Source of the DNA: a virus
Taxonomy: Duplodnaviria; Caudoviricetes
Direction: 5' to 3' (one strand)
DNA: 64,000 nt
IMG/VR virus record: IMGVR_UViG_3300042569_000831
Span: 2,008 to 66,007 of that record
Below, piece by piece: positions 14,201-30,468 of this stretch (positions are counted from its first letter, which is position 1; each line of letters starts with the position of its first letter). The notes below the pieces were generated by a model. The model saw only the letters and a list, made by a program, of their open reading frames with translations. It did not search any database and was not told the DNA's origin. The position numbers and the translations under genes were made by a program.

Positions 14201-17176
14201 AAAGCAATAGAAGGCCTTTTAGGTAAGCCTAAGAAAGTTCAGCAAAGAAAGTCTGCTGTTGAAAAAACAAAAGAATTTAAGTTAGCTGCGTTTGTAATTA
14301 GAAAGAAATCAGAAGGCGCCTCTGTATTAGAATTAGCTACGGGTATAGCTTCTGTTATGCCGGGCATGTCGCCTGTTGAAATCAACAACTTGATTAACGA
14401 TCCTCAGCAGTACATAAGAGACAAGTTTAGCTACCTAAGCTCTCTTCTTCAAGAAAACTTAATAGCTAGAGCCGGAGGTCAAAACATTTACGCAAACATA
14501 CCTACTAAAAAAAGTGGAGCATTTTCTGCACTATCAGTAGACATATCTAGCATTGAAAACTACTTGTCTTCTAAAAAGAAAGGAAGAATTGATAAAGCGG
14601 TAAAATTCTTAGGCGATGTAAAAACTCAATGGTTTAGTGCTGCTAAAGGAGCTCCTAATTGGGTGCTTGCTTTGAGGGATATTTCTTCCGGAACTAGAAA
14701 CTTAGAAATAGATGTAGCTGTTAATACTACTAAGAAATTAAAGAAGACGGCTAATAGTATTAAATTTAATGATTGGGATGCGTTTACTAAGGCAATCAAA
14801 TCACTATCAGTTAACGCTACTCCTCAGCAGAACAGCTTGCAGGTAGTTCCGCCTGAAATACTAGCATTGCCTCAGGAAATACAGCCGTTTGTGTACGAGA
14901 TGAGAGATCAGATAGATGGACTTACCAAGGACCTTGTTGCGTCAGGGTACGTTACGCCCGATCAGGCCGTTGCGCTTGAATCAAATATTGGTCAGTACGT
15001 AAACAGAGCGTATAGATTGTTTAATGAAAAAGGATATAAGCCATCTAAGGAAGACATAGCTAATGCAATGAAATATTATTCCGATATTTATATTGACGAG
15101 TTAGCAAATAAGAATGCGGGAGTATTAACCTACGATCAGGTAAAGCAGAAAGCTATAGAGATGGCCGACATGGAAGTAAAGGATATTTTAAACAAAAAAG
15201 TAACTCCTTACTTTAAGTCAGGCGATTCTAGGAATGTTGATATACTTAAAAAGAAGGAAGATATTCCGGAGCCAATTAGAAAGTTAATGGGTGAGTACAC
15301 CGATCCGGGAACTGTATTTGTGATGACTGTTGCTAAGCAAGCTGCTTTAAGGTCTGCTAGTCAATTATTAACCGGCCTTAGAGATAGAGGCATGGGGTCT
15401 GTATTCTTTGAGGAGAATGACCCTGAAAGGCCCGATACTCATAGCGAACGAATAGTAGCAGAAGGTACTGAAACTAAGAATCCATTAGGAGGACTTTACA
15501 CGACTCCTGAGATGGCCGCTCAGTTACAGGGTATAGCTAAAACTACAAACCAAGTTTTAGATGTATGGATGAAATTAGTTGGTACTGTTAGATGGGGAAA
15601 GACTGTTGGATCCGTGGTTACTCAGGTTAAAAACTTTGAAAGTAACGTTGGATTTGCGGTAATGAATGGATTAATATTTACCGGTAAGTCGGGGCAGGGA
15701 TTAAAAGGAGCTGCTAGTTATTATGGCGGAAGAATAAGTGGAAGAGAGTTGGATGAATTAACAGCTAAGGTGGTTAGCTTAGGACTTGTTGGCCAAGGCG
15801 TTAACGCAATGGAGCTTAAAAAAATGCTCGGTTCGGGGGACGTACATGACATAGCTGTAGATTTAGCAGTAAATGGAAGATCTAATTACGCTAAAGCAAG
15901 AAACTTTGTATCAGCGCCAATAAGAGCAGCTAATAAGTTTTATCAATTAAGTGATGACTTTTGGAAAGTTTACGCTTACATGAACGAAAGGCACTTAATA
16001 GCTAAGGCGATGTTCGGAAAATCATACGACAAACTAACAGAAGATCAGCAAGTTGATGTGGACATAGAATCGTCCGAAAGAGTTAAGAGCACATGGCCAA
16101 CCTACGACCGTGTATGGGAGGGTGCTAAATACTTGTCAGAAAGAGTTCCACTAATAGGTAACTTTATTTCCTTCCAAGCTGAATCAGTGAGAGTGTTATC
16201 AAATACTGTTAAAATAGCCTTAAAGGATATTAAATCAGGCGACCCGGGCTTTCAAGCGTTAGGGTACAGAAGGCTCTTTGGAATAGCTTCTTACCTATCA
16301 ATAAGAGCAGGATTAACTTACGCTGCCGCTACCTCAGCAGGTATGGCTGTTGCAGGATTGTTAGGAATTATTACAGGGGATGATGAAGAAAAGGAAAAGC
16401 TAAAGGGGATTAAGGACGCCTTACCTCAGTTCATGAAGACCGGGGACTTGTTAGTAATCAAAGGCGATAAGCCGGGAGTATTCACTGTTTACAATATGTC
16501 TTCCATAGACCCTTACAACGTAATGTTTAATACAATGAATGCACTGACAGAGGGCAGGGAAGGAATGGATGCAGGTCCGGCTGCTGCGGTTACTGAGTTC
16601 TTTAATGGATTCATGGAGCCCGAAATGACTTACGAGACTGTATCAAGCTTATTAAGTAATAGAAGCTTAAAAACAGGCGATAAGATTTACTTAGATGCAG
16701 ACAATCCGGGTGACAAGATTCTTAAAGGAGCCAAGTACGTATGGGATAATTTAGAGCCATCGTCAGTTTCATTGGTGAATAGATTAATGGAGAAGGAAAA
16801 TAAGGGAGCAGAAGTTTCCGCTGTATTCGGAGCAAGACCTTACGATGTAGACTTGAACAGGTCGTTTAGAATATTATTATCCACTACTACTCAGGATTTA
16901 GAAACTATAAATAAGCAGTACGGAGCGATAAAGAAAAGCGAAACAGCTACAGCCGAAGAGAAGAAAGCGGCAGAGAAGGAGGCAGAAGAAAAGATTGCCT
17001 ATTACTCAGAAAGAATAGGCAATACTTATAAAAGATTCTTATTATTAGGTGCTAGCAAGGAAGAGCTAGACAATATAGTTAAAGAGAAGAGAGCTGTTAA
17101 ATCAACCGGATGGAGTAAGCAATTAAAGAAATCCATCATATCAGGCAAGATTAACAAGGACGACTTTTTAAAGTAG
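8207..17176 (+). CDS. giant polyvalent cargo protein (two HExxH metallopeptidase-like and ADP-ribosyltransferase-like modules)
   Basis: 2989 aa; HEGAH and HEIGH motifs, 'FYHYSGK' and 'VTVYSS...FVSPSK...EYAG' ART-like segments, hydrophobic helices in the C-terminal region. Confidence 0.7.
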   Translation: MPDKIKDFFKAEIAPTGLFKSEDEFRTYISDPKNASSFYESEVKPVGLFKDAEEFNSFLGLKKNDGLVSPTQNQQEVLPSNLAPTQSSVQNPRIEPSQEEDLSLLSVDELSKRYNKSKETINAYKEQVDKFKQEGEKGQVRLSGVANLYNYENNNLKNIADAYNQKIQQKAPKTPEPAPQAPTLLAKVREYQKIANAPVTKDYELNSMGDLDEVDNPASLKSKENAKVEYDKLIKEYATTTGISEDDLKQTLNDFPKISEDQKLVDYTKQRLENPAAYKRQKAASSWSNGLNDALVDYNQKAIAENKKPPIGNPVRFANQKREDLKVILKGANPYSQFINFTENLRKEISYLPNEVVNGIMKNVAIEGQGILEGAPDKDQYISSDPKSKNLNKYQVSWLNSIKISDPDLYKNRTRLLSVPMSKLEEQSSAKNEFSSLSPTSAIGASKAASAARNQRLASERVQLEAEEGGISMAKEDKTEKLDDLIRKSKTTGITQQEKEVADQLIVDLNQLDKDSKALNEKYPLATKDRDDQLLFSATGGELNRAERFAAKTVKGFDNALGFISDIISTPFMSKEQRVIQDLDELGGKRRFETKTARKQDDIVVGNYTINATPEFLKYIEEVDNDKSLTFEQKQQKKRDKYREDPYLITIKRNDNAGDLLFTSETVLNAVEDFGSQILPQLGLSAITGGGAAISKLRSLSTLFGTTFASGYKDNYLSAVEEGDAAPSTTAFRNTSIDALYELIGDDLAMVKKVFGKASGSIGKLVNSIDEAEWNKILSKKTGAFRAVKNVAKSFGKDVLLEGAKEATGEAAAAGTTSYLDNKEAYEPMKTAFVNTFVGSVATMGLGTVFNYKNITRAEKYAMYAAGANSSAYLADIDESLKNGTITEDEANKRRQVIQSMSNIVNEMPKVDGMSDNEVVDFAFNKYIQEQAGKAEKVIPDNAKVKELVQNLNNENNNIINAATESTQQAGSTESNIGQPTGTLQGQQEVGEGQQGEATQQGANVSDSNIVSEGELTPEQKKERIKSKFDFVSENDFVPEAFTKEEDAQYRDSLAPSRFKTEKELTDFLENNEYAMLTGQNPDVVSLSKGANAQLNDKAKQWLADRGLTAEPIFGRYDGSERSFLVPNMTKEQALEFSNDFLQQSVAHSEGLVYKDGTIRKRVEGYSLEPRFDADGNNYSTLKIGDKKVDFSINYDWVSPVSKMEAPKPLPAKNQKSTEIATELSRELTGPSDMIESVSQSLKATGINTVQLSGEEFAARAAKDGAQADSMGYFDDQAKEFVLNKDKADKATVIHEGAHPVMNIIYNTNRPLYDKVVSGMKQAAAKNAGVQSAIEFGGQYEMQEGETKEQAQARMDNEALVETLAKIEDGEIDLDELPKSFKQSLIDMVNSVAKFFGFDQVLDDTDVAAFKKLVGQVYDALTTGEDISSIVGVENVTKFENKIGEGVQERSSFVNTDKLNLSTDKRGNVKIELKKVQPTSELMSEYNNARNEAFKISDRAEEQYDKGNDKEGDALMIEYKKARKDAERLIKGTTASTSSSIELQDVLPKEFIDKYPSLSDIKIKSSDVSFGNRGNYNKETNTINVITKGENFEHTLSHEIGHLLWDKILTDNQKKLFSDNNPVTEHGKKVLDNKETNYQESYGGKNIHNEEDFAELFADNNGSLDDAIKAKKNQSATSKKVQERKTELPEKQARQMTEDGKGNYVFYHYSGKNINTIDPNKFGSNLATGRDEKPGVGISMYYTKKDTSEPGVPSNFGYVVRVPKDKVYSFNDDPLNLLPAAEKLFKKQYPNQAFDPNKQIGFLTKVANSKGYKMTVANWNIKGSFALRAQTTEALKPEKYTRIKPGTLNQTEVLSPELDKLKPNSKKRVQQRVDTLSDVERKQKQLEIINKENPAPNDYNTWIRKVEDIKTAEEAFKSSEKEGAMYPDFTEKDMKDALSSGEVTVYSSQPIKEGVFVSPSKINAQEYAGGKTGKLYSEKVKLEDVAWIDEGEGQFASTKAIEGLLGKPKKVQQRKSAVEKTKEFKLAAFVIRKKSEGASVLELATGIASVMPGMSPVEINNLINDPQQYIRDKFSYLSSLLQENLIARAGGQNIYANIPTKKSGAFSALSVDISSIENYLSSKKKGRIDKAVKFLGDVKTQWFSAAKGAPNWVLALRDISSGTRNLEIDVAVNTTKKLKKTANSIKFNDWDAFTKAIKSLSVNATPQQNSLQVVPPEILALPQEIQPFVYEMRDQIDGLTKDLVASGYVTPDQAVALESNIGQYVNRAYRLFNEKGYKPSKEDIANAMKYYSDIYIDELANKNAGVLTYDQVKQKAIEMADMEVKDILNKKVTPYFKSGDSRNVDILKKKEDIPEPIRKLMGEYTDPGTVFVMTVAKQAALRSASQLLTGLRDRGMGSVFFEENDPERPDTHSERIVAEGTETKNPLGGLYTTPEMAAQLQGIAKTTNQVLDVWMKLVGTVRWGKTVGSVVTQVKNFESNVGFAVMNGLIFTGKSGQGLKGAASYYGGRISGRELDELTAKVVSLGLVGQGVNAMELKKMLGSGDVHDIAVDLAVNGRSNYAKARNFVSAPIRAANKFYQLSDDFWKVYAYMNERHLIAKAMFGKSYDKLTEDQQVDVDIESSERVKSTWPTYDRVWEGAKYLSERVPLIGNFISFQAESVRVLSNTVKIALKDIKSGDPGFQALGYRRLFGIASYLSIRAGLTYAAATSAGMAVAGLLGIITGDDEEKEKLKGIKDALPQFMKTGDLLVIKGDKPGVFTVYNMSSIDPYNVMFNTMNALTEGREGMDAGPAAAVTEFFNGFMEPEMTYETVSSLLSNRSLKTGDKIYLDADNPGDKILKGAKYVWDNLEPSSVSLVNRLMEKENKGAEVSAVFGARPYDVDLNRSFRILLSTTTQDLETINKQYGAIKKSETATAEEKKAAEKEAEEKIAYYSERIGNTYKRFLLLGASKEELDNIVKEKRAVKSTGWSKQLKKSIISGKINKDDFLK
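11088..11255 (+). CDS. overprinted small basic phage protein (MPLQKAH...MLAIAISSAKGN)
   Basis: 55-aa ORF in the +1 frame of the giant gene, with an A-rich leader; resembles the widespread 'MPLKK..IS.NI.E..GK..QA.AIAL' phage family. Confidence 0.65.
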   Translation: MPLQKAHNKQGLQKAISANLRELYKDNKKLEKGNKGKPRSKAQMLAIAISSAKGN

Positions 17177-19277: not shown

Positions 19278-19325
19278 CGCAGTATTGTAATACCCCGCAA
19301 TGCGGGGATATGTGAGTTATAAGAA
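19278..19325 (+). other. attI-like site 1
   Basis: CGCAGTATTGTAATACCCCGCAATGCGGGGATATGTGA-GTTATAAG; palindromic, lacks an attC body; homologous copy at 32611. Confidence 0.5.
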
Positions 19326-19335
19326 ATAGCTACGT

Positions 19336-19542
19336 TTAGTAGTTTTCAAGATAATCTCTAACTTCTTCCCAATAATCTTTTCCTAAAAACATACCAAAAG
19401 GATTAATTGATTTTATAATCTCATCAACTGCTATTAATGCACATAATACTGCATCCTCATCAGTTATTTTTATATTTCTTTTGTTAAATAAATCATCCTT
19501 TATTTTATTTACAATTTGCTTAGCTTTTTCTTTTGCATCCAT
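19336..19542 (-). CDS. cassette 1 hypothetical protein
   Basis: 'AKEKAK...CALIAVDEII...YWEEV' small phage protein lying within cassette ends. Confidence 0.65.
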   Translation of the reverse strand: MDAKEKAKQIVNKIKDDLFNKRNIKITDEDAVLCALIAVDEIIKSINPFGMFLGKDYWEEVRDYLENY

Positions 19543-19570
19543 AATTACTATTTGTGTTTATATCCGCTAC

Positions 19571-19699
19571 TTCTTATAACAGCAATTTGTATAAAAGGCT
19601 TGTTTAGTGTATGTCGGATAGTTTTGTTGATATTCTTTTTTATTTGTTGTGTTTTAGCTTAATTCACGCCACTTATACAAGTTGCAAAACGTTATAAGC
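19571..19699 (+). repeat. attC-like site 1
   Basis: TTATAAC-AGCAATTTGTATAA...TTATACAAGTTGC-AAAAC-GTTATAA. Confidence 0.8.
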
Positions 19700-19704
19700 A
19701 AGTG

Positions 19705-20523
19705 CTACATTTCGTTTCCAAATAAAGTTCCTACCCATAAGTCTTTTTCTTTTCTTTTTTCTTCCACTTCTTTTTTTGATTTCCCACTGTTAGTAGTTAA
19801 TAACTCCATAAACATATCATAATTTTCATTATGATTATTTTCGCCATATTTTATTTTAACCACTAAATCGTGCTTAATTTGGTCTATCTTAGGGTAAGGT
19901 AGGGTTTCAACAATCAAATCCGAAATACATTTTTTGTCAAAAAAATAGAAATATCTATACTGTCCTCCAAAAACTTTGTATAATGGTGTTCCATAAATAC
20001 CTTCTAATACACGTCTTTCTATTGTTTTATGTTTATGCCACAAAGAAACACTGTGCAATCTTTCACCATCTTTTGTGTACCAAACTCCGCCATCTTTTCT
20101 AAATCCAGTATAAATAAAATTACTTGCTTGGTATATAGTGCCGTTTTTGTTCATCATACCGTCTGCAAATGAAATAACCCATTTAAGTTTAGGGTTTAAT
20201 TTTTTTACCATTTTTAATGACTTTGCGATAACATAGCTTTCAGAATTAAACCCTAATTTATCATCAAGCCACAACCTGTTTAGTTCTAAAAATTCATCTT
20301 GTTTAGTGTTTTTTACCCACTGTGCTGTTTTTTTAGGCATTATCCCAAACCCATATTGAGCAACTCCTAATAAATCACTGCTGTAAAAAATGCCTATATG
20401 GTACTTAACACCTTTTACGGATGTACCGCTATAATGATTTTTTTCAATAATTGAGTTAGCTACTTTTGGTTCTATTAGCTCTAAATGTATGTTCTTAAAA
20501 TCTATATTTTGTTTCTTTTGCAT
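19705..20523 (-). CDS. Mom-like (GNAT-fold) DNA adenine-modification protein
   Basis: 'HYSG', 'LELNRLW', 'ISFAD...GTIYQASNFIYTG' Mom-family motifs. Confidence 0.75.
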   Translation of the reverse strand: MQKKQNIDFKNIHLELIEPKVANSIIEKNHYSGTSVKGVKYHIGIFYSSDLLGVAQYGFGIMPKKTAQWVKNTKQDEFLELNRLWLDDKLGFNSESYVIAKSLKMVKKLNPKLKWVISFADGMMNKNGTIYQASNFIYTGFRKDGGVWYTKDGERLHSVSLWHKHKTIERRVLEGIYGTPLYKVFGGQYRYFYFFDKKCISDLIVETLPYPKIDQIKHDLVVKIKYGENNHNENYDMFMELLTTNSGKSKKEVEEKRKEKDLWVGTLFGNEM

Positions 20524-20617
20524 ATTTCAATTTTTTGTTTTATTTTCCCACCGCACAAAAAAGAAAAGAAAAAGGTTTTGTCTTTCAAATCAAGTTCTAC
20601 ACTATAATACCGCACCA

Positions 20618-20753
20618 GCTTATAACAGCGTGTATATGCAAGTGGCGGTTCTGTGGTTTATCCAACATTCGTTATTCTATCAAACTATCTGCGTAATTGA
20701 AAGGTAAGTGCTTCTAATCGCCACCTGACATATACACGCAAAACGTTAGGTGC
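20618..20753 (+). repeat. attC-like site 2
   Basis: TAAC-AGCGTGTATATGCAAGTGGCG...CGCCACCTGACATATACACGC-AAAAC-GTTA, with extra bases on the right arm. Confidence 0.85.
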
Positions 20754-20757
20754 AATG

Positions 20758-20973
20758 CTAATTTCTACTCCTAACAAAACCTGCTATTATTAGAAATCCT
20801 ATTACCATATTAGTTGTTGGTTTAAGGATTCTACTATTCTCACTATAACATATCAAATTCCCAATTATTAATCCTATTAATAACAAGATTGGGAAGATAT
20901 GTTTCCGCACTGCACCTAACACCGGTTTTGTGCCATTGGCGGTTTCGTTCTTCGATTTAACTTTTGTACTCAT
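20758..20973 (-). CDS. cassette 3 small two-TM membrane protein
   Basis: Two hydrophobic helices; start codon lies inside the attC-3 loop. Confidence 0.55.
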   Translation of the reverse strand: MSTKVKSKNETANGTKPVLGAVRKHIFPILLLIGLIIGNLICYSENSRILKPTTNMVIGFLIIAGFVRSRN

Positions 20974-21048
20974 ATCAAGTTTTGTTTTTCAATTTAAAAT
21001 TTGTGGTTTAAGTCGCCAACGGACACAAAGCCCCGAAACGTTATGCTC
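20912..21048 (+). repeat. attC-like site 3
   Basis: GCACCTAAC-ACCGGTTTTGTGCCATTGGCG...CGCCAACGGACACAAAGCCCCGAAAC-GTTA. Confidence 0.8.
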
Positions 21049-21104
21049 CATTGCTACATTCGTGCTTCGATTGAAGTTTTGTGCTAACATACCGTATTTA
21101 TTTT

Positions 21105-21983
21105 TTATTTTCCTCGCTCTTTTGGATAAGGATAAATTTTATTTCTTTCTTCATATATTTTACGAAGTTGTTTTGTTTCTTTTTTATCTTTCCCTAAAAC
21201 ATAAGCGTATTTGTGTTTTGAAGGCATAGATATTTTTTCGCATACCGTTTGTTTGTATTTTGAATAATCTCTTAGTTGCTTCTCAATTTCTTTCGGCATT
21301 TTATCCCAATTCATGCCAGTAGCGTGTGACCAATCTTTTTGCCACTCAATATTTAATTCCTTTGCAAATTTTCGATAGGCTGTTTTTTGTCTAAAATATC
21401 TATCACTTACCACCTTTCCTGTATATGGGTTAATAAATCGGGTTGTAGTCCCAGCAGTTTGCCCCATATAGTAGAAATTACAAGCCTGATAGATAGTTCC
21501 AAGTTCCTTTGCTGTTGGGTCTGAATATGCAGTAAATAACCTCCATTGAGTATTATCAACCATATGTTTTATACACCACATTAAAAATGAACTTGCTAAA
21601 TTTTTTGGCGACCAAGATATACAAGCACCTCTACTAATCAATCTCTCCAATTCTTTGGTGTTATCTCCAAGTGTTTTTGAAAAAGCATTTGGCATATTAA
21701 ATAAAATTACACCAGCAATAATGCCTTTATGATAACAAGCAAACCAATGTGTTGTATATTGAGATAAATTCCCCAACCATTCGTGTCTTTCAATAAATTG
21801 TTTTAGCCTTTGTTGTTCCTTTTTATCTGTAACATTAACAAACAAAAAATCAGGAACTCTTAACGTATCAACATATTCTTTTGTAAAACCACATTCCGTT
21901 AAATCTCCTTCAAGGTTTTTCACTCTAATATCATACTGCCAACATTGGTCTTTATCGTATGTGTTCAATCTTTCTTGTATCAT
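21105..21983 (-). CDS. second Mom-like (GNAT-fold) DNA-modification protein
   Basis: 'RLISRGAC...AYSDP...GTIYQACNFYYMG' motifs. Confidence 0.7.
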   Translation of the reverse strand: MIQERLNTYDKDQCWQYDIRVKNLEGDLTECGFTKEYVDTLRVPDFLFVNVTDKKEQQRLKQFIERHEWLGNLSQYTTHWFACYHKGIIAGVILFNMPNAFSKTLGDNTKELERLISRGACISWSPKNLASSFLMWCIKHMVDNTQWRLFTAYSDPTAKELGTIYQACNFYYMGQTAGTTTRFINPYTGKVVSDRYFRQKTAYRKFAKELNIEWQKDWSHATGMNWDKMPKEIEKQLRDYSKYKQTVCEKISMPSKHKYAYVLGKDKKETKQLRKIYEERNKIYPYPKERGK

Positions 21984-22077
21984 TTTAATTTTTTAAATTA
22001 ATTTTTGCCAACGCTCATAAAAAATAAATACTACTTATGTGCTTCGATTTAAATTCCTCGTTAATAAACCGCAACGA

Positions 22078-22176
22078 GAGCATAACACGTGCTATAAGCA
22101 AGTTTGCCAATAATATTTGTGCTAATTTGAAACATTCTACAAGGCAAACCTGCTCATAGCACCATACGTTAGTTGC
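22078..22176 (+). repeat. attC-like site 4
   Basis: GAGCATAAC-ACGTGCTATAAGCAAGTTTGCC...GGCAAACCTGCTCATAGCACCATAC-GTTA. Confidence 0.85.
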
Positions 22177-22411
22177 AATTTTTCTTACACCACATTATCT
22201 TGCTACCTCTCCGCAAATGAACTAATCGTAATTCATAACCTTTATTCATCATTTGTTGCATTTCTTCTAATTCTTTAAGTTCTACATCATTGAAAGAGCG
22301 TTCATTTGCTCCATCTTTAATCTTAATGTAATTCTTAGCAAAATCATAAAAACTGCAACTAACATCGTGTATAGCACATTGCTTTTCGTGTTTCAAATTA
22401 TCTTTATTCAT
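22169..22411 (-). CDS. cassette 5 hypothetical protein
   Basis: Starts inside attC-5; its TAA stop overlaps the GTTA of attC-4. Confidence 0.55.
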   Translation of the reverse strand: MNKDNLKHEKQCAIHDVSCSFYDFAKNYIKIKDGANERSFNDVELKELEEMQQMMNKGYELRLVHLRRGSKIMWCKKNCN

Positions 22412-22484
22412 ATTATTAAGTTTTGTGTTTGCATTTGTTTTTTTTAATTAAGTTCCTACTGATAAGCCGCCAAACGTTAATACC
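22355..22484 (+). repeat. degenerate/chimeric attC-like site 5
   Basis: GCAACTAAC left end and AAAC-GTTA right end, but the arms pair poorly; GTTA coincides with the thyX stop codon. Confidence 0.55.
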
Positions 22485-23121
22485 CGAACGCCTTTAACGT
22501 CCACTTAAAGGGATTTCCCTCTATGTTTTTCACAGCTTCTAGCATTTGACTTGCCACCTCCCTAGTCTCTTGCTGCGCATCCGGTTTTAACCTAAGGTTC
22601 CATAAATGAATAAATGCTAGCAAACTTCCCGTCCAAATAAATGTAGTATTAAGATTTAAAGGAAGAATTGTCCTTGCTTGTTCTTTAGATACGCCTAATT
22701 TTAACAACTCTTCGTATGCTTTTTTGCACTGATCAATTACACATCTTTCAATATAAGCGGCTGACAATTGTGATTGTATTAGTCCATCACTCCCCTGCTT
22801 GCTATCTTTAGATTGCTTTCTCCATTCCTTAATAGTAGTGTAACTATCACTAAAGTCTACATACCTACCACTTATACTATTGGCGGATAGTCCAATTTGA
22901 TGTTTAAAAAGCTGTCTTTCTACATAAATAGGACAAGTTATTCTAAACTGTAACTGAGGGTGTCTAAAAGGCGCTGTGTGTTTATGTTCAACTAAATATT
23001 CTATAAGTCTTTCATCCTTTTCATCTAGCATGTCTTTTGACTTGCCGAATGACACACGAGCCGAATTTACCGCCATTAAATCATCTCCAAAATGCGAAAG
23101 CAATTCTACTTTATTTTCCAT
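22477..23121 (-). CDS. thyX: flavin-dependent thymidylate synthase
   Basis: 'HTAPF', 'RQLFKHQIGLSANSISGRY', 'EQARTILP', 'LRL...AQQE' ThyX motifs. Confidence 0.95.
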   Translation of the reverse strand: MENKVELLSHFGDDLMAVNSARVSFGKSKDMLDEKDERLIEYLVEHKHTAPFRHPQLQFRITCPIYVERQLFKHQIGLSANSISGRYVDFSDSYTTIKEWRKQSKDSKQGSDGLIQSQLSAAYIERCVIDQCKKAYEELLKLGVSKEQARTILPLNLNTTFIWTGSLLAFIHLWNLRLKPDAQQETREVASQMLEAVKNIEGNPFKWTLKAFGY

Positions 23122-23338
23122 TCTCTAATAATTGTATTTTTCTGTTAAGATAAAATGATGCCTTCTTTAAATCTTCAATCTCCGTTTCTACGCTTTTCTT
23201 CCCGGCTCTAGCTATGTACTTCGCTACATTAAATAAATAGGCGTCCATGTGCAAGCCCCATGCTTCGCACACATTAATTACTTCATACGTTCCTTCACCC
23301 CCATAATGGGATGGGTGATCTACTAAATTATTTGGCAT
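23111..23338 (-). CDS. DUF3310-family protein
   Basis: 'VDHPSHY...NVAKYIARAGKK...EDLKKA.FYL'. Confidence 0.85.
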   Translation of the reverse strand: MPNNLVDHPSHYGGEGTYEVINVCEAWGLHMDAYLFNVAKYIARAGKKSVETEIEDLKKASFYLNRKIQLLENGK

Positions 23339-23389
23339 TATTTATTGTTTTAGTTATTGTTTTTTTCTCTAAATTCAATCCTAGAATCG

Positions 23390-23584
23390 TTAATATGCAA
23401 TAATATTATTAACAATTCGGTTAGCTTCCGAATAGCTTAGTTTAATATTACTGTCCTTAGCTCGTTGGATAGTAATATTATTACCATCGTCAACAGCTTT
23501 CATTACTATTTTGCCCCTGTACTCTTTATTCCAATGTTTAGAATATTTTACACAATTATTATCTATGTCGTACTCATTAGACAT
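23390..23584 (-). CDS. hypothetical protein
   Basis: ORF in operon. Confidence 0.45.
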   Translation of the reverse strand: MSNEYDIDNNCVKYSKHWNKEYRGKIVMKAVDDGNNITIQRAKDSNIKLSYSEANRIVNNIIAY

Positions 23585-23613
23585 TAAATTAGGCTATGCT
23601 TCTATGTGAACCC

Positions 23614-23862
23614 TTACCATATTTTTAGTATTTTATCTCCTTTAGTTAATATTCTTATTTCAAAGTGGTTGTCATAAAAGGATACAATATCGCTAACTAA
23701 ATTGTTTATATTACTAAAATTAATCATTAAGTACTGATTGATTGAGTGTATAAACCCATTGAAATCTAAGACACGCTTTGGATTAGTATCCAAGTACACA
23801 TCGTACATGAATTGATAAGTCATATTTGACCTATTAGCTAGATAGTATTCCTTTGTTATCAT
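23614..23862 (-). CDS. hypothetical protein
   Basis: ORF in operon. Confidence 0.55.
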   Translation of the reverse strand: MITKEYYLANRSNMTYQFMYDVYLDTNPKRVLDFNGFIHSINQYLMINFSNINNLVSDIVSFYDNHFEIRILTKGDKILKIW

Positions 23863-23863
23863 T

Positions 23864-24397
23864 TTAAAAGTTTTTAAACATCATTGATTCGACCGGTAGG
23901 CTTGATTGATGATTGTACTTTGCTGATTTTTTTGTATCATAAGGATTAATTACATTTCCCTTTATAGCATGATATACTAATTGGCCTATTGGCATGTTTG
24001 CATATATTCTAACAGGCTTTACGGCGGTAATTTCTAGCGTCCAATACCCTTTAAAATTTACGTCACCTAGCCCTGCTGTTATATGGATAGAAATACCTAA
24101 CCTGCCGGTGCTTGACTTGCCTTCTAATATTGGAACATGGCGGTAAGTTTCTGTGTACTCGATAGTAGAACCTAGATAAAGCACGTTTGGCTGTAATACA
24201 AATCCTTCTTTCGGTATGTTAAAACAATTAATCTTATTGTGCTTCTTAGCGTCTAATACTTCTGAGTCGTAAACAGCTAGTGTCTTGCCCAAGTGAACAT
24301 CGTAACTATTGCTACCTAAATGTTCTATGTTAAATGGGAATATCGCAATATTACCATCTTCCATTTGATTTAATATTTCACTGTCTGATAGTATCAT
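23864..24397 (-). CDS. dcd: dCTP deaminase
   Basis: 'MILSD.EI', 'SYDVHL', 'EGKSSTGRLG', 'GYWTLEI', 'PIGQL' trimeric dUTPase-fold Dcd motifs. Confidence 0.9.
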   Translation of the reverse strand: MILSDSEILNQMEDGNIAIFPFNIEHLGSNSYDVHLGKTLAVYDSEVLDAKKHNKINCFNIPKEGFVLQPNVLYLGSTIEYTETYRHVPILEGKSSTGRLGISIHITAGLGDVNFKGYWTLEITAVKPVRIYANMPIGQLVYHAIKGNVINPYDTKKSAKYNHQSSLPVESMMFKNF

Positions 24398-24407
24398 AAA
24401 TTTAGTT

Positions 24408-24436
24408 TAAAAGCCCCCGAACTCTCAGGGGCTTTA
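24408..24436 (-). terminator. intrinsic terminator-like hairpin
   Basis: AAAGCCCC...GGGGCTTT stem with flanking A/T runs. Confidence 0.6.
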
Positions 24437-24441
24437 TTGAT

Positions 24442-24681
24442 TTAAAATGGTAATCCGTCATTGCTCTGCTTGTCTTCTGCTTTTTTTTCAGTAGGAACCC
24501 AAGTATTTAACTCTAGGTACGGTCTACCATCCTTAGAACTTTTAAGTACAAAGTTTTTCCAACCATCGAACTTAACGCCAATCTTTTCCCAATCCTGAGG
24601 ACCAAAAGAGATGGCTGTTTCAACTTGTCCAAACTTGTTTTCCTTTTGGGATACTTTCCCAACATAGATTTTTTCGCTCAT
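24442..24681 (-). CDS. small SSB-like protein
   Basis: Acidic C-terminal tail ending DGLPF. Confidence 0.55.
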   Translation of the reverse strand: MSEKIYVGKVSQKENKFGQVETAISFGPQDWEKIGVKFDGWKNFVLKSSKDGRPYLELNTWVPTEKKAEDKQSNDGLPF

Positions 24682-24829
24682 GTTTATTAAAATTTAAAAG
24701 TTAATTCAAACGCAAAATTTAAGAACCCTACCGCTAACGCAACTTCCTTTCGATAACTATCATAAATCAGTGCAACTGCCGGAAATAATAAATAGATAAA
24801 CTCTTCCTTTTCTACATTAAAAGTTGTTT

Positions 24830-25165
24830 TCATATAATTTTATTTAATTTAAGCATGTCAATTAATTCTTTGAAACTATCTAAGCTCATTGCTACGATGG
24901 TTCCTTGTCTTGTTTTTTTGTGGAACACTAGATTGTAATTAGAGTCTTTAGGCATACTGTCTAGTACTTTATGAATACTACCAAGATTCTCTACCGCCTT
25001 TAATTGGCAGTTAAATGGATTGGTATTGGTTAAGTCTACCTTAAGATCGTCTAGCATCTTTGATTCGTACCGAGAGGTTTTACAATTCTCGAACCCCCGA
25101 TCTCGCCACCATTTAGCTATCTCCCTTTCGTATGTATGCCCTTTGGCTCTAGCGTTAATCTTCAT
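24830..25165 (-). CDS. Holliday junction resolvase (PD-(D/E)XK, Hjc-like)
   Basis: 'RAKGHTYERE...VDL...CQLK'. Confidence 0.75.
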   Translation of the reverse strand: MKINARAKGHTYEREIAKWWRDRGFENCKTSRYESKMLDDLKVDLTNTNPFNCQLKAVENLGSIHKVLDSMPKDSNYNLVFHKKTRQGTIVAMSLDSFKELIDMLKLNKII

Positions 25166-25358
25166 AGTGTATTTTTGTTTGTGTGTACATTGGCGGTAAA
25201 GTGTAAAACCTATTGGATTTTTTTACTACACCTTCCTCTACCATGTTATTTAATTCGATTGATACGTCCGCAAAACTAGAAGAGAGTAGACTGAATATCC
25301 CTACTATGCTTACTGACGGGTGGTTTGCTATCGCTCTTTTTATCTGTTCTCTTAACAT
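25155..25358 (-). CDS. small hypothetical protein
   Basis: Coupled ORF. Confidence 0.45.
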   Translation of the reverse strand: MLREQIKRAIANHPSVSIVGIFSLLSSSFADVSIELNNMVEEGVVKKSNRFYTLPPMYTQTKIHYED

Positions 25359-25582
25359 AAATTCTTTTTGCTGTTAAAAAATCTTCTATTGTTGACCATT
25401 CAACTTCGTTATGGAAAGTGCTAAGATAGAAAATATTTTTATTAATTGGGTCAACTAAATAAAATTTATTTTCATTTGGCACAACTTCTTCCGGCTCAGC
25501 TAGCCTTAACATATCAATCCCCTTTTCTAATATCACCCACTCCCTGATTTTACCTCCGTTATTAGCGCTCTTCCATGAATCT

Positions 25583-27304
25583 TTATAGATTACCTGCTGC
25601 AAGGAATCGTGTATAATCGGTTGGTTGGTTTTTAAATTTCGTTTTATCGAGGACATTTAAGTTACTTGTTGGTGTGTAAATAGAATTTGATATGTTAAAA
25701 ACAAAGCTGTCGGTGCCTAGCTGACCTGAGAATTTAAACCTTACTTTCCAAAAGTGAATCTCGGTTGTGTTCTCACGCCTGTAAACTGTGATGCCATTAT
25801 CGGGGGCGTTGTAATAGTGGGAAGAGTCGCCAACATCATAGCCGGTAGGGATTTCGTAAACGCCATTTGCCTTGCTCATTTTTTTAGGGTGAGCCACTAG
25901 CCAAACGTGTACATCGTGCTTTCTTGCAAACTTCCTTAGGTCTCTCATCATATCACCTATGGCGTTATGCCTTTTATCCCCCGAACTGACAATTCCACGC
26001 TCAACAGAAGACATGTTGTCTATAACGATACCCCTTATTCCGGTGCGCTTAATCATCTCTTCGGCCTTGGCCATGATGGACTCTATTGTGCTATCATTCT
26101 CGTCAAGTTCGTAATACTTAAAGTGGTCGTTGATAAATAAAGTCTCCATTTCTACCTCCGACTTTGTGATTCTCTGACAGTTCGGGGAAAAGAAAAAACT
26201 CTTACCGGTCTTAATAGAAATCAAATCAGTAATAGCCATCTTTGCGCTTGCCTCCTCAGCAGAGTACAACATAAACGACCATCCATGACGGTTAGCTAAA
26301 TTCATCAAGACATTCTTTAGCCAAGTAGTTTTACCATGACCCGGTATCCCGGTAATCAAAGTAACCATTCCGGGGTGCCAAACGAAGTGGTCGTCCATAT
26401 TTGCCCATCCGGTATCGTACCCCTTAGGATAACCCTCTTCCCACAGTAAGGCCATATCAGCCCCATTAACGACCTCAATACCGTCAATAGGGAAATACTC
26501 GGCATTTAAAATACAAGCCTCTAATGCCTCCTTTCCGTGCGATTTCAGCGTATCGTTAGCGTCCTTTTCAGGGAAGACAACTACCTTACAGTTTTGTTTA
26601 CCTAGTCTTCTAGCTAACTCATCCCTAAGGTTTCTGCCGGCCTCATCCATATCAACTGCCAAGTAAATAGTTTTGCCTTCCAAATACGGGAGCATTTCTT
26701 CCAACCACTCTAGCTTCTGATTACCCTTAGATGCGCCATTTGGAACGCTTACCGCATTCTTAATACCCGCTTCGTAAAACGCCATAACATCACACTCGCC
26801 TTCACAAATAACCAATGAGTCAGAACTGTTATCCAATGCAACATCAAGTCCATACAAGCACAACTGAGCGCCGCTAACAAGCTTAAAGTTCTTGTCACGA
26901 TCCCTAAATTTAACATTGACTAATTCGTTATTGATGAAGTAATTAAAGTGTATGGCGTTTCTATTCTCTCCGGCTTGTGGCATGAATACAGATCCTTCTG
27001 ATACTTGGTATCTAAGAAGAGTTTGATTAGTTATCCCCCGAGCTGCGAACCAATCTATTACAGGCTGAGAAAGCCTTTTAAGTTCAGTTGTGTTAGGGCG
27101 AGTGTATTCCTTTTTAGAAAAGTTACTTACCCCTCCTTTGAAGTCGCAATGATGGCACCTATAAAGACCCTTCTCTACGTTAACCGATAAAGATAAATCG
27201 CTTTTGTTTTTTCGATCAGGGCTGCACTTCGGGCATTTAACCTTAACGTCTCCTCTTGATCCTAGTTTAACATCTATCCCTAGATTACGTAGTTTATTGA
27301 TCAT
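25583..27304 (-). CDS. T7 gp4/Twinkle-like primase-helicase
   Basis: Zn finger (CPKC...CHHC), TOPRIM (CEGECD, DMDEAG, KDAND), Walker A GIPGHGKT, 'LVAHP'. Confidence 0.95.
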   Translation of the reverse strand: MINKLRNLGIDVKLGSRGDVKVKCPKCSPDRKNKSDLSLSVNVEKGLYRCHHCDFKGGVSNFSKKEYTRPNTTELKRLSQPVIDWFAARGITNQTLLRYQVSEGSVFMPQAGENRNAIHFNYFINNELVNVKFRDRDKNFKLVSGAQLCLYGLDVALDNSSDSLVICEGECDVMAFYEAGIKNAVSVPNGASKGNQKLEWLEEMLPYLEGKTIYLAVDMDEAGRNLRDELARRLGKQNCKVVVFPEKDANDTLKSHGKEALEACILNAEYFPIDGIEVVNGADMALLWEEGYPKGYDTGWANMDDHFVWHPGMVTLITGIPGHGKTTWLKNVLMNLANRHGWSFMLYSAEEASAKMAITDLISIKTGKSFFFSPNCQRITKSEVEMETLFINDHFKYYELDENDSTIESIMAKAEEMIKRTGIRGIVIDNMSSVERGIVSSGDKRHNAIGDMMRDLRKFARKHDVHVWLVAHPKKMSKANGVYEIPTGYDVGDSSHYYNAPDNGITVYRRENTTEIHFWKVRFKFSGQLGTDSFVFNISNSIYTPTSNLNVLDKTKFKNQPTDYTRFLAAGNL

Positions 27305-27445
27305 TTGTATAGTTTTTTGTATAGCAACCTTAACTCTTCATTCTTTGCAGCTATATCTTTTTTCAGATACTTTGCTTGCCGGTGTAGCTCATTGAAATTG
27401 TCAATCATTTTGACTAACTTATCTTCCAACTGCTCTACTTTTAAT

Positions 27446-27871
27446 TTAATGTTGTCCGCCATTTTGTTTTGATTTTAATATCCAATACTCATTGGCGTCC
27501 TCCCAATAAGTCATAAATTTATTTTTACTTCCGAACAAAGTAGCCGGCCTAAGGTATTGCCTCATCTCCGGATCGTTACCCCACTTTTCTTTTTTATGAA
27601 GAATAACGCTTTCAAAGTGAGCAAATGTAACCTTAGGAATTTGTCTTATTACTGCCTTTATTTTTTCAGTATTAGAATAATTTGTTTCGCAAGTTTCATT
27701 AAAAAAATCTAGTACTTTCTTAGCTAAGCCCTTGTCATCAAACGATTCAATTTCTTTTTTCATTTGAATCCAATGCATATCGTCATCGGCATTAAATATT
27801 ATTAATAAATTGATAGCGGCAAGAGCATCGGCCTTTGTACTGAATAGGTTAATTATCTTCTGAGTATTCAT
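27446..27871 (-). CDS. replication initiator-type protein (conserved phage C-terminal domain)
   Basis: 'W...EMRQYLRPATLFG.KF..Y' motif. Confidence 0.75.
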   Translation of the reverse strand: MNTQKIINLFSTKADALAAINLLIIFNADDDMHWIQMKKEIESFDDKGLAKKVLDFFNETCETNYSNTEKIKAVIRQIPKVTFAHFESVILHKKEKWGNDPEMRQYLRPATLFGSKNKFMTYWEDANEYWILKSKQNGGQH

Positions 27872-28055
27872 TCATTACGCTTTTAATTGTATCAATACTC
27901 CATCCCGCTAGAACCAATAAGTTAGCTATTGCCTCTATTGCATCAGGAAGGCTTGTCTCATCAATCACGTCCTTGTTCATAAATGGAAGGCCATTTGCCC
28001 CCCATTCATTCTCATAGGTGTATTTATTCTTGTAATGCTCGATAGTTATTTTCAT
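27849..28055 (-). CDS. hypothetical protein
   Basis: Coupled ORF. Confidence 0.5.
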   Translation of the reverse strand: MKITIEHYKNKYTYENEWGANGLPFMNKDVIDETSLPDAIEAIANLLVLAGWSIDTIKSVMNEYSEDN

Positions 28056-28345
28056 ATCTCCCTGATTGATTGTAAATTAATTTTATGAAAAAACAGTTCG
28101 GGGGACTTACGGTTATTCTCAGAACTTATCTTAACAGTAAACTTGCATACTGAACCGACCTCCGGTAACTCTAAATCGTACCAATCAGTAACAGCTAACC
28201 TATTCTTACCAATTAATAACGGCTCTTGGTTATTGTCTGACAACAGAAACAAGATAGTCCGGTACGTATAGTCTGTATTATTTTTATTAAAAACAATGGG
28301 GTCTGATACGCTGATAATCCTTCCGTGAAACGTTATGTTACTCAT
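28052..28345 (-). CDS. OB-fold ssDNA-binding protein (DUF3127-like)
   Basis: Beta-rich 'ITFHGRII...VGSVCKFTVKISS' pattern; located in the recombination operon. Confidence 0.5.
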   Translation of the reverse strand: MSNITFHGRIISVSDPIVFNKNNTDYTYRTILFLLSDNNQEPLLIGKNRLAVTDWYDLELPEVGSVCKFTVKISSENNRKSPELFFHKINLQSIREI

Positions 28346-28730
28346 GTGTTATGTATTTTTCTAGTTTTAAGTAGGGTTCGGTATTGTAATTAAGTTTAAT
28401 GTAATTTAATACTAAGCTTGTTTTGTAGTAAAACTTCTTGATATTGTCTTCTTCAAGGTTTATGTAACCTCTATTTACTCTTCTCTGAGCTTCCTTAAAT
28501 GAAGCCTTAAACTCGCTTAACTTGTTTCGGTATGAGTCGTAGCCCATATCTAAGAAGTTTGTAATGTCTCCGGATTTAAACCCGTACATGTCAGCCACAC
28601 CAACAAAAATCATTCTAGCTAAATCCTTGGTTCCTTCCTGATCCTGATTCAATTGAAGGGGCTTTAACGCCGATCTGTCAAAGATAAACTGTGGTCTCAT
28701 TGCTCTTTCGATGTCTCTAAGTTTTGTCAT
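28338..28730 (-). CDS. hypothetical DNA-binding protein
   Basis: ATG follows the exonuclease stop; HTH-like middle segment. Confidence 0.5.
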   Translation of the reverse strand: MTKLRDIERAMRPQFIFDRSALKPLQLNQDQEGTKDLARMIFVGVADMYGFKSGDITNFLDMGYDSYRNKLSEFKASFKEAQRRVNRGYINLEEDNIKKFYYKTSLVLNYIKLNYNTEPYLKLEKYITHE

Positions 28731-28732
28731 GT

Positions 28733-29734: not shown

Positions 29735-29746
29735 ATTTTTTAAATT

Positions 29747-29776
29747 AAAAAAGGCAGGCCGTAGAAACAGCCCGCC
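29747..29776 (-). terminator. intrinsic terminator-like hairpin
   Basis: GGCGGGC...GCCTGCC followed by a T-run on the - strand. Confidence 0.5.
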
Positions 29777-29800
29777 GTAGTGCTTAAACGATGGAAATAT

Positions 29801-30454: not shown

Positions 30455-30468
30455 TCGATAAAATTTAG

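Follow-up and report, generated by a model that had tools for sequence, protein, structure and literature searches.

Positions 19316-22479 of the window (the whole 64,000-nucleotide stretch analysed here, taken from IMG/VR record IMGVR_UViG_3300042569_000831) hold an array of five cassettes with attC-like hairpins between them, in which the sites read on the + strand and the genes lie on the - strand. The array is likely to be of integron type, without a nearby integrase, and is situated within a leftward operon of an uncultured phage whose hosts probably belong to the Flavobacteriia. On the + strand, each cassette begins with the TTA of a GTTA and ends with the G of the following one, and comprises a single - strand gene together with an attC-like hairpin at its right end, upstream of its own gene. 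This is the reverse of the classical integron cassette, in which the attC follows a promoterless gene of the top strand, whereas all annotatable ORFs between the sites of the window are on the - (bottom) strand.

On the left, the array is bounded by a GTTA at 19316-19319 (+ strand), beyond which no hairpin site occurs, so that we regard this boundary as a probable attI-like junction. The sequence that follows it, GTTATAAGAAATAG, can pair with the box preceding the TAAC at 19577 at 13 of 14 positions. Unlike sequence lies to the left of 19316 in four (X1) and three (X4) wastewater contigs; the public wastewater runs labelled RNA-Seq are probably DNA, given as contigs, and say nothing on transcripts or starts, several run joints with sides of 18-34 letters were left out, and no meaning was attached to uncovered parts. 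In four cultured Flavobacterium phages the left junction is one and the same, and the first cassette after it is different in each phage. The left junction of the window, represented by one genome only, is unlike theirs in sequence.

Cassette 0 (19317-19691, - strand) carries ORF 19336-19542, a 68-aa member of phrog_21441 (function unknown), with its hairpin upstream. This site, H0 (19577-19694, + strand), scores 87.2 bits with the covariance model described below, folds at -14.0 kcal/mol on the - strand vs -11.3 kcal/mol on the + strand, and is 81-88% identical in its hairpin region to sites of 46 Flavobacterium phage records. Cassette 1 (19692-20745, - strand) encodes a Mom-family DNA-modification gene (19705-20523; Pfam PF25680, E = 6.2e-58) that starts 100 nt downstream of its hairpin, and its boxes are complementary over 9 and 10 nt to those of the neighbouring sites. 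Its site, H1 (20623-20748, + strand), scores 81.2 bits, with a - strand fold of z = -3.19. Cassette 2 (20746-21040, - strand) contains ORF 20758-20973, encoding 71 aa with two hydrophobic stretches, which begins in the loop of H2 and ends 12 nt inside the cassette. H2 (20917-21043, + strand; 97.2 bits), whose loop includes an ATG at 20973 and an A-rich leader, is 85-94% identical to sites of more than 40 viral loci.

The second Mom-family gene (21105-21983; Pfam PF25680, E = 8.6e-15) belongs to cassette 3 (21041-22168, - strand), starts at the same distance from its hairpin as the first, and is enclosed by the mutually complementary boxes GTTATGCTC and GAGCATAAC. The associated site, H3 (22083-22171, + strand), has a short loop and 20-nt arms that are 90% complementary, and scores 51 bits (z = -3.46 for the - strand fold). 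In cassette 4 (22169-22476, - strand), the first three bases provide the stop codon of ORF 22169-22411 (80 aa), and the boxes at 22168-22183 and 22348-22363 are complementary over 16 nt at 94%; relatives of this ORF (L123-L125) are 94% identical over residues 13-80 and differ in the upstream region and leader. The terminal site, H4 (22360-22479, + strand), is decayed. It retains the left box, left arm and CGTTA, but its right arm has degenerated so that the arms are unpaired, it forms a hairpin on neither strand (z = +0.8), and it scores 29.2 bits (E = 0.004) as a site outside the training set of the model. H4 abuts the stop codon of thyX (22477-23121). We considered thyX as a sixth cassette and rejected it, as no partner box for GTTAATACC was found downstream of H4.

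A lone sixth cassette probably lies at 32652-32970 (- strand), consisting of ORF 32670-32915 (81 aa) and a site at 32768-32970, with a partner box (TTAGTGG) at 32652. The site is atypical, in that its 137-nt 'loop' encodes the first 45 residues of the ORF, and the covariance model has no match there. We count it as a site because of its arms (an inverted repeat of 23 nt at 32774-32796 and 32934-32956, 87% complementary), its leader class and two related contigs (L121 and L122), in which the arms and first 51 residues are kept and the C-terminal bodies differ. Pfam, NCBIfam and PHROGs gave no match for the three small ORFs (20758-20973, 22169-22411 and 32670-32915). At gathering thresholds, Rfam detected two tRNAs in the window and nothing else; to our knowledge Rfam has no attC family, and this result is consequently uninformative on the sites.

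Structure and breadth of the hairpin sites

The sites take the form TAAC-arm-loop-arm-(A)ACGTTA on the + strand. TAAC and CGTTA are invariant in all 29 aligned sites, and the purine/pyrimidine pattern of the 7-nt attC consensus is sometimes broken (e.g. GTTATGC). Covariation shows that the hairpin is conserved: 530 of 638 pair cells are Watson-Crick, with many double changes, and several stem pairs exist as three or four distinct pair types. The arms are equal in length, and next to the boxes lies an asymmetric internal loop of 1 x 5 nt. Extrahelical bases, by which classical attC sites are marked, are absent from the aligned sites, which instead possess conserved mismatches (an A.C mismatch in the stem is invariant, and a second mismatch is variable). 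A T.G pair is present in 22 of the 29 sites.

A covariance model built on these 29 sites, among them H0-H3 and not H4, returned E = 3.7e-16 to 2.6e-07 for H0-H3, values that apply to members of the training set. In a survey sample of 103 loci, gathered via one sequence pattern, 80 viral loci together gave 369 matches to the model (E <= 0.001), and 21 genome loci gave 63 (E <= 0.01). A simple hairpin scan gave scores of 32, 30, 25, 22 and 22 for the five top sites, compared with top scores of 22, 19, 18, 20 and 18 in five shuffles. By itself, AACGTTA shows no enrichment over the window (16 occurrences vs 13.2 expected) and was dropped as evidence; the site signal is the structure plus the box complementarity, and not the motif itself.

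The two strands differ in folding potential. Over the 29 sites, 56 cells are G:T-capable on the - strand vs 25 on the + strand, and the - strand fold is stabler by 2.4-4.5 kcal/mol in all four window sites that fold. A bottom strand that is both stabler and richer in G:T pairs than the top is described for attC sites in the accessible text of Nivina 2016, and by these criteria the - strand has the properties of the canonical 'bottom' strand.

Cassette ends and the point of exchange

Directly after each right-hand GTTA come 9-16 nt whose reverse complement is found just ahead of the next TAAC, and box complementarity of at least 9 nt occurs in 35 of the 41 consecutive site pairs from the window and four cultured phages. 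With such ends, a circularised cassette would rebuild a full site. In host arrays, the same complementarity exists between the cassette-start box and the box before the cassette's own hairpin.

Near-identical hairpins from different viral loci are linked to their surroundings on one side. Among such hairpins, 54 pairs share the left flank only and none the right flank only, and identity falls from 1.00 to 0.23-0.35 immediately past the GTTA. These comparisons show the exchange point to be the right-hand CGTTA box (resolved to this invariant box, and not to a single bond), with the hairpin travelling with the left-hand gene, which in turn means that the sites read on + and the genes on -. Cassette 2 recurs at another viral locus (L094, 10920-10617) with 96% identity, the homology stopping at AACGTTA on both sides, and the four nucleotide differences between the copies comprise three synonymous third-position changes and one replacement. 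Additionally, L003 carries one extra cassette relative to L004, and close phages vary in cassette order, with clean indels. The initial annotation had proposed an array reading on + with all of its genes on -, and this is upheld by the 54 pairs against none, by the limits of cassette 2 at both GTTAs relative to L094, and by the stabler and G:T-richer - strand. Host array pairs provided no informative case as to crossover side (36 differ on both flanks, 2 were scored '?D' and 1 'D?'), and because of this the placement of the host hairpin downstream of its gene is an assumption that we make from the shared site asymmetry.

Gene orientation in phage and host arrays

Cassettes in the IMG/VR loci number 246 antisense and 4 sense with respect to their sites, with 42 ambiguous and 4 without an ORF, while the window and four cultured phages contribute 31 antisense and no sense cassettes (7 ambiguous and 1 without an ORF). 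The resulting bias of 277 antisense vs 4 sense extends over many unrelated contigs, and the cassettes counted are mutually related, a dependence that a control using one member per family lessens and does not remove. Flavobacterium chromosomal arrays of the same site family contain 34 sense cassettes in seven loci. Inversion is thus shown to be the rule, with few exceptions, in the phage arrays, and sense orientation the state of the host chromosomal arrays with this site family. Matches between host and phage arrays are of hairpin length only (at most 163 nt), with no cassette bodies in common.

L107 and L108, the last two of the 82 viral loci, have 3 antisense cassettes that were tallied under 'genome'; the remaining antisense cases in genome loci come from short MAG contigs with mixed labels. 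On a 1.7-kb MAG contig (L021), a recombinase fragment is co-directional with the sites, yet one ORF is antisense.

Probable translation starts within the sites

The starts of three ORFs had been assigned to hairpin loops in the initial annotation, with translation continuing through the arm. For ORF 20758-20973 this is correct, given that its start (20973) lies in the loop of the site at 20917-21043, the arm being read as ...NGTKPVLGAV.... The start of ORF 22169-22411 must be reassigned, as it lies in a relic site and not in a hairpin loop, because the right arm of H4 has decayed and there is no fold on either strand. ORF 32670-32915 does start within its inverted repeat, in the atypical site missed by the covariance model. 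The arm-encoded peptides KPVLGAV, AIHDVSCS and SISDVSGRS were all found, the latter two within ...QCAIHDVSCS... and ...LLSISDVSGRS..., and the TAA stop of ORF 22169-22411 is, as had been noted, the TTA of the neighbouring GTTA (22168-22171).

Over the phage arrays, with a loop start, the arm is read in one of two frames, to yield leaders of the form ...N(G/S)TKPxL... or ...(T/H)(D/A)V(S/M)..., and such leader peptides were found on 71 unrelated protein families. Identical leaders precede bodies that are unrelated, the change from leader to body falling sharply at TAAC. A further proposal, that crossover at the sites could build chimeric N-termini, is not supported: crossover takes place at the far side of the hairpin, outside the genes, where in gene direction it follows the TAA of the previous gene, so that leader and body would move together as one cassette, and exchange at the left (TAAC) box was seen in 0 of the 54 informative pairs.

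An alternative explanation is that the loop ATGs are unused, that the true starts are downstream of the left box, and that the N-terminal extension is a by-product of arms open in two frames. The longest ORF starts in the loop in about half of phage cassettes, and 113 of 227 clearly start downstream of the hairpin, as both Mom genes do at a distance of 100 nt. Relative to the gene body, loop ATGs are distributed 125/66/20 by frame, leaving 66 + 20 out of frame, and ORF 20758-20973 has possible alternative starts further along its frame (GTG at 20922 and 20910, TTG at 20886). However, an in-frame excess is found among bodies of at least 600 nt (41/15/6 by frame; in frame 41 of 62, p = 1.3e-7) and again when one member is taken per body family (80/50/12, p = 1.6e-8), and loop starts show a sharp peak at 40-70 nt from the left box (84 of 114). 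In the family of ORF 32670-32915, nucleotide differences over the 51 loop-encoded residues are distributed 7/0/8 by codon position in one comparison, so that second positions account for 0 of 15, and in a further comparison they account for 2 of 17. The single change between L094 and the leader-coding part of ORF 20758-20973 is synonymous. We therefore regard disuse of the loop ATGs as unlikely. These patterns show recombination sites under joint DNA-structure and protein-coding constraint, and support the earlier proposal that the sites may double as translation-start modules and coding sequence.

Recombinases associated with the arrays

No recombinase of the array-linked type was found in the 64-kb window or in the 66-kb record, which is estimated to be 58% complete. 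A tyrosine recombinase of the window (33744-34949) was rejected as the array enzyme, its best NCBIfam score being 35.9 bits against a cut-off of 220; it is unrelated to the array-linked host protein (BLASTP E = 0.05) and is a phage integrase by PHROG. The four complete cultured phages with arrays contain no tyrosine recombinase of any kind, so that mobility would need an enzyme acting in trans.

Two host arrays (L119 and L109) do adjoin a recombinase, the gene being upstream of, and co-directional with, the sites and genes. Phage homologues of this array-linked recombinase, 265-305 aa in length, occur at the left end of the arrays in four phage loci (L034, L039, L057 and L062), where the gene runs opposite to the top strand of the sites, at the 3' end of the cassette operon. 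Compared with the system of PMC4889954 (2016), so far as the accessible text describes it, the arrangement in L119 and L109 is alike and that in the four phage loci is not. On TIGR02249, the host array-linked proteins score 200-205 bits, in two stretches, against a cut-off of 265, and their middle region falls short of that of the Vibrio integron integrase (chain 2a3v_A) by approximately 43 residues. The insertion that integron integrases have is thus missing, to the extent of about 43 residues, from the linked recombinases.

Cargo of the cassettes

Among 149 cassette ORFs of at least 90 aa, we identified 26 N6_N4 methylases, 3 C5 methylases and 3 Mom genes, together with one each of MT-A70, Dam and D12. 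The cargo of the window comprises its two Mom-family genes, and that of its relatives is mainly DNA methyltransferases. In cultured phages, methyltransferase content tracks plating efficiency, according to the accessible part of Nilsson 2020. The methylase and Mom cargo, taken with this published link, suggests a modular counter-restriction kit, the parts of which may be swapped.

Relationship to integrons and other systems

The phage arrays resemble integrons and CALINs (Qi 2023, PMC9892861) in their imperfect hairpins bounded by ...AAC and GTT... boxes, cassette-end complementarity, exchange at the GTT box, stabler and G:T-richer bottom strand, entry junction (conserved, with variable first cassettes, in the four cultured phages) and DNA methyltransferase cargo. 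They differ in that nearly all of their genes are on the bottom strand with the site upstream of the gene, the site itself contains start codons and codes for leader peptides, the boxes are complementary over 10-16 nt as opposed to 7, and the linked recombinases are without the insertion mentioned above. A CALIN, as defined in the available text of Cury 2016, has at least two same-strand sites less than 4 kb apart and no integron integrase nearby; the window, with five same-strand sites within 2.9 kb and such an integrase absent, falls within this definition. An integrase with the family-specific additional domain, which would make a complete integron, was not found beside the window array. 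The accessible part of Qi 2023 refers to 17 phage CALINs in Table S1, which may include Flavobacterium phages, and 'Flavobacteri' is absent from the main text (PMC9892861). Polaribacter phage P12002L, named in Qi 2023, has sites of the same family between minus-strand Mom and methylase genes. The terms 'hairpin', 'inverted repeat' and 'integron' are absent from the accessible part of Nilsson 2020. In the literature searched, we found no paper on inverted cassettes or loop-encoded starts in phage arrays.

In sedentary chromosomal integrons, some cassettes, a minority, are reverse-oriented and self-expressed (e.g. toxin-antitoxin). The phage cassettes resemble these in having a gene antisense to attC and independent of the platform promoter, but differ in that inversion is the rule and the start codon is in the site.

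As a whole, the locus is probably best explained as an inverted integron-type array. Under this explanation the - strand, which is also the mRNA-sense strand, would fold and be recombined by a Xer-like tyrosine recombinase, and given that the window holds none of that type, the enzyme would be supplied by the host or by another phage. New cassettes would be inserted at the left junction, which is the end of the operon farthest from its promoter and where a start module within the site may keep them expressed.

The hairpins might instead be regulatory stem-loops comparable to the PeSLs found in T4-type phages, acting as promoter/terminator or in RNA processing, with shuffling due to homologous recombination and no site-specific recombinase. 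We know of no end-to-end box complementarity, one-sided linkage, recombinase association or coding through the stem in PeSLs. These are intergenic stem-loops flanking small accessory genes in variable regions subject to gene shuffling, and accessible parts of two papers describe them as mobile regulatory cassettes (PMC2839356, PMC4122927). A regulatory role would suit hairpins that lie between the genes of an early-type operon, fold best on the mRNA-sense strand, have A-rich leaders and start codons in their loops, and occur in four complete phages without a tyrosine recombinase. However, homologous exchange leaves unexplained the cassette-specific end complementarity of 9-16 nt, the one-sided linkage (54 vs 0), the breaks in identity exactly at TAAC and GTTA, and the presence of the same site family beside IntI-like recombinase genes in hosts and four phage loci, and we consider this reading very improbable. 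Least probable of all is that the phage picked up an inert fragment of a chromosomal integron from its host, a dead CALIN oriented by an accident of capture, since although the integrase is not nearby, the terminal site H4 is decayed, and phage CALINs are explained as captured fragments in section 3.4 of Qi 2023 (PMC9892861), host and phage arrays share hairpin-length matches and no bodies, the orientation bias (277 vs 4) recurs across many unrelated contigs, close phages have their cassettes in different orders with clean indels, and the cargo is typical of phage counter-defence.

Implications for phage and host biology

An extension of the inverted integron-type array, which we advance tentatively and hold to be slightly more likely wrong than right, is that Flavobacteriia phages may run an integron-like system of their own. 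Some would encode a Xer-type recombinase without the insertion, and cassettes from an inverted pool would enter an early operon at its distal end, through a fixed junction. The hairpin of each cassette would bring along its means of expression, namely the leader, the start codon and an N-terminal peptide. By this means unrelated phages would trade counter-defence genes (DNA methylases, Mom and RNA-repair enzymes), in a mirror image of the sense arrays of their hosts, and leaders and bodies would on rare occasions be brought into new combinations by exchange at the left box.

In bacteria, integrons serve to capture genes, and a promoter in the platform drives their cassettes; phage-borne attC clusters have been reported only recently, as rare fragments. 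Here, one site family joins host chromosomal arrays and hundreds of phage sites (the 369 matches in 80 loci), and the phage version is reversed, in that the gene is antisense to the site and the site appears to give the translation start and often the first 20-50 residues. Bacteroidota are not known to have classical ribosome-binding sites, and the arrangement offers a testable answer as to how a newly captured, promoter-distal gene is expressed in this group. The proposed counter-restriction kit is open to testing at the bench, since Muminvirus phages are in culture together with their hosts, Flavobacterium LMO6 and LMO9. If Flavobacteriia phages do operate an integron-like system of their own, unrelated phages could swap counter-defence genes.

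Layout of the array

The window covers bases 2008-66007 of a 66,007-base IMG/VR virus record with an estimated completeness of 58% and contains two tRNA genes. Its only DNA-level similarity to cultured phages is in a short piece at about 19.54-19.72 kb, for which 46 Flavobacterium phage records show 81-88% identity. The majority of ORFs at about 17.2-38 kb lie on the - strand, and a single 2989-aa ORF (8207-17176, +) sits immediately left of this block. On the + strand we find four good sites, each running from TAAC(A) through an arm, a loop, a second arm and an A-rich spacer to CGTTA (19577-19694, 20623-20748, 20917-21043 and 22083-22171), together with a weaker site (22360-22479) and an atypical one (32768-32970). 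Every ORF between sites is on the - strand: a 68-aa ORF, a Mom-family gene (19705-20523), a 71-aa ORF (20758-20973), a second Mom-family gene (21105-21983), an 80-aa ORF (22169-22411) and, following this, thyX. The peptides and start positions given by the initial annotation, and the TAA stop shared with GTTA at 22169-22171, were confirmed on the sequence.

The left end of the array is the GTTA at 19316-19319, which has no hairpin site before it. Four complete cultured Flavobacterium phages carrying arrays of the same site family are identical to one another to the left of their first GTTA, and each array begins with a different cassette. Contigs from public runs (probably DNA) break at 19316, 19694, 20749 and 22170, and the bare heptamer AACGTTA is not enriched in the window. 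The second Mom gene has on either side, at 21054-21094 and 22031-22071 and inside cassette 21041-22168, an armless partial copy of the left portion of a hairpin loop (...TGCTTCGATT..., repeat family D9); these copies may be remnants of older sites.

Two other repeats were observed. A distinct family (D1, D2, D6) occupies 36628-38767, where a 56-90 nt unit occurs five or six times, every copy having its own short stem and lying directly upstream of a small minus-strand ORF. The motif GTTCGGGGG(A/T) (families D5, D7, D10, D12, D14) occurs in both gene blocks, at 63-89, 5363-5389, 15831, 29949-40380, 51582 and 59756-61149, often follows a short GC-rich stem, and may be a terminator or other regulatory signal.

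Hairpin structure and reading direction

Alignment of 29 sites from the window and the four cultured phages gives a 22-pair stem with Watson-Crick pairing in 530 of 638 cells; many of the pairs vary among three or four pair types, one A.C mismatch is the same in all sites, and 22 of the 29 carry a T.G pair. The covariance model built from these sites recovers the window's four training sites and also detects 22360-22479, which was not used in training (29.2 bits, E = 0.004). In DNA folding, all four good sites are more stable on the - strand than on the + strand (-14.0 versus -11.3 kcal/mol at 19577-19694, -21.0 versus -18.6 at 20623-20748, -19.9 versus -15.4 at 20917-21043, and -18.5 versus -14.8 at 22083-22171), and 22348-22489 forms a hairpin on neither strand. 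Judged from sequence, the window sites are a structured, repeated element. Each GTTA is followed by the reverse complement of the bases that precede the next TAAC, for example over 14 nt (20745-20758 and 20907-20920) and 16 nt (22168-22183 and 22348-22363). Complementary runs of at least 9 nt were found in 35 of 41 consecutive site pairs from the window and the four phages, the six misses including the jump from 22171 to 32768. Complementary cassette ends of this kind are a cassette signature that the window array shares with integrons.

Box complementarity is unchanged by strand reversal, and direction was therefore tested by flank linkage instead. The related loci, 82 from IMG/VR and 21 from genomes, were all collected with a single conserved-arm pattern, so that this sample, with 369 and 63 covariance-model sites respectively, is biased to one site subfamily. 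Among hairpin pairs at least 90% identical and in different viral loci, both flanks were shared in 168, only the left in 54, only the right in 0 and neither in 330, the left flank being unclear in 16. Identity between paired hairpins is 1.00 up to and including the final base of GTTA and drops to 0.23-0.35 directly past it. Window 20742-21045 is 96% identical to the viral locus L094, the match stopping at AACGTTA on both sides between unrelated flanks, and locus L003 has one more unit than L004, with TTA at its start and its own hairpin at its end. Because of the flank linkage and these two comparisons, we delimit the predicted cassette as TTA...gene(-)...hairpin...G on the + strand, which puts the hairpin upstream of the gene it belongs to. 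The - strand of the sites is also G:T-richer and of lower folding energy, which fits published marks of the bottom strand (Nivina 2016). Both the left-flank linkage (54 versus 0) and the - strand as bottom strand bear out the earlier orientation call of an array on + with genes on -.

Phage and host arrays

We scored orientation by the longest ORF between neighbouring same-strand sites, in cassettes that are related to one another and so not independent; on this count the IMG/VR loci hold 246 antisense and 4 sense cassettes (42 ambiguous, 4 with no ORF), and the window and four cultured phages 31 and 0 (7 ambiguous, 1 with no ORF). Sense cassettes number 34 in the Flavobacterium genome loci L010, L013, L019, L020, L023, L026 and L119. 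The 15 antisense cases in the genome set are mostly on short MAG contigs, and 3 of them lie in L107 and L108, both viral. In L119, 11 sites and at least nine genes come after a gene for a 356-aa recombinase, on one strand throughout, with TAA stops within the TAAC box; the layout of L109 is similar. Host arrays likewise possess box complementarity (9-10 nt), and DNA matches between host and phage arrays are of hairpin length only. Long sense arrays of the same hairpin family were seen on Flavobacterium chromosomes (L119 1-12319, its 11 sites extending across 10.5 kb; L109 1276-3488; L013, L019, L020), adjoining a co-directional recombinase gene.

The sole tyrosine recombinase of the window (33744-34949) is of phage-integrase type and unrelated to the array-linked proteins, and none was found in any of the four complete cultured phages. 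This 401-aa integrase lies near a tRNA-Thr gene (36227-36297), which suggests a temperate lifestyle. In five Flavobacterium genomes, the best match to an integron-integrase model is a 355-409-aa frame scoring 200-205 bits (cut-off 265), and 215-218 bits on a Xer/integron-integrase model (cut-off 220). The nearest solved relative of this host recombinase is the Vibrio integron integrase, from which it differs in having about 43 residues fewer where the family-specific insertion lies. In four viral loci the array has at its left end, on the cassette-gene strand, a gene for a Xer-like homologue of 265-305 aa (L062 9456-10253, L057 7598-8431, L034 1743-2546 and L039 10550-11467), and these loci look like complete phage-borne platforms.

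Bacteroidota are listed in a review among the phyla with integrons, and 10,705 phage genomes have yielded 17 attC clusters (Qi 2023, PMC9892861). One of these, in Polaribacter phage P12002L, carries two methylases and sites "with divergent directions", and IntI1 recombined one of its attC sites in the published assay. Our model places six sites in this phage, at 30008-39245 and 14502-14625, which may or may not be the assayed ones; five of the six are on +, between minus-strand Mom-like and methyltransferase genes. In the literature searched, we found no description of systematic inversion or loop-encoded starts in phage arrays. Among 149 phage cassette ORFs of at least 90 aa, we identified 26 N6_N4 DNA methylases, 3 C5 methylases, 3 Mom proteins, one each of MT-A70, Dam and D12 methylases, 5 YopX proteins, 2 RNA ligases, and Thg1 and some others once. 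Plating efficiency of the cultured phages correlates with methyltransferase content (Nilsson 2020).

Translation starts and leader fusions

The longest ORF begins inside a site in 114 of 227 non-redundant antisense cassettes, and 84 of these 114 starts are 40-70 nt from TAAC. Counted against the frame of the gene body, 125/66/20 loop ATGs are in frame 0/1/2, and 41/15/6 for bodies of at least 600 nt (p = 1.3e-7), where 28 of 53 cassettes have an open in-frame loop ATG. With kinship reduced by drawing one random member from each of 171 body families, mean counts are 80/50/12 (p = 1.6e-8). This enrichment in the gene frame supports the earlier proposal that the sites are predicted start modules as well as coding sequence. 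Stop codons lie 12 nt into the cassette in 71 cases and coincide with the TTA of GTTA in 37. Four bases separate the 71-aa window ORF from its L094 copy; three of the changes, among them the sole one in the leader-coding part, are synonymous. At locus L002 (2733-2837) and at window 20592-20665, the loop ATG opens a short out-of-frame ORF ending just before the gene start; such ORFs are frequent where the gene begins downstream of the hairpin, and may be coupling uORFs.

The GTTA is read by 97 loop-start ORFs, as GTT/A in 45, xxG/TTA in 49 and in the third frame in 3, giving the leaders ...(T/H)(D/A)V(S/M)... and ...N(G/S)TKPxL.... The clearest example of a leader fusion is ORF 32670-32915, of which two viral contigs (L121 and L122) retain the arms and first 51 residues, one diverging from about residue 60 and the other directly after the box; differences over the 153 shared bases are distributed 7/0/8 and 7/2/8 by codon position. 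ORF 22169-22411 presents the opposite situation: its residues 13-80 are 94% identical in three contigs, and the upstream region and leader differ. Where near-identical hairpins adjoin different genes, the T of TAAC is the precise point at which the match ends (330 pairs). The initial annotation had proposed crossover at the sites as the source of chimeric N-termini, an origin that is unsupported because the exchange point lies outside the genes and left-box exchange was found in 0 of 54 informative pairs. As judged from these alignments, the leader-body fusions are themselves real, and the expectation that the same leader motifs recur on unrelated bodies holds across the 71 body families of loop-start ORFs, with the TKPxL leader present in 32 ORFs of 24 families and one exact 11-residue leader in 7 ORFs of 7 families.
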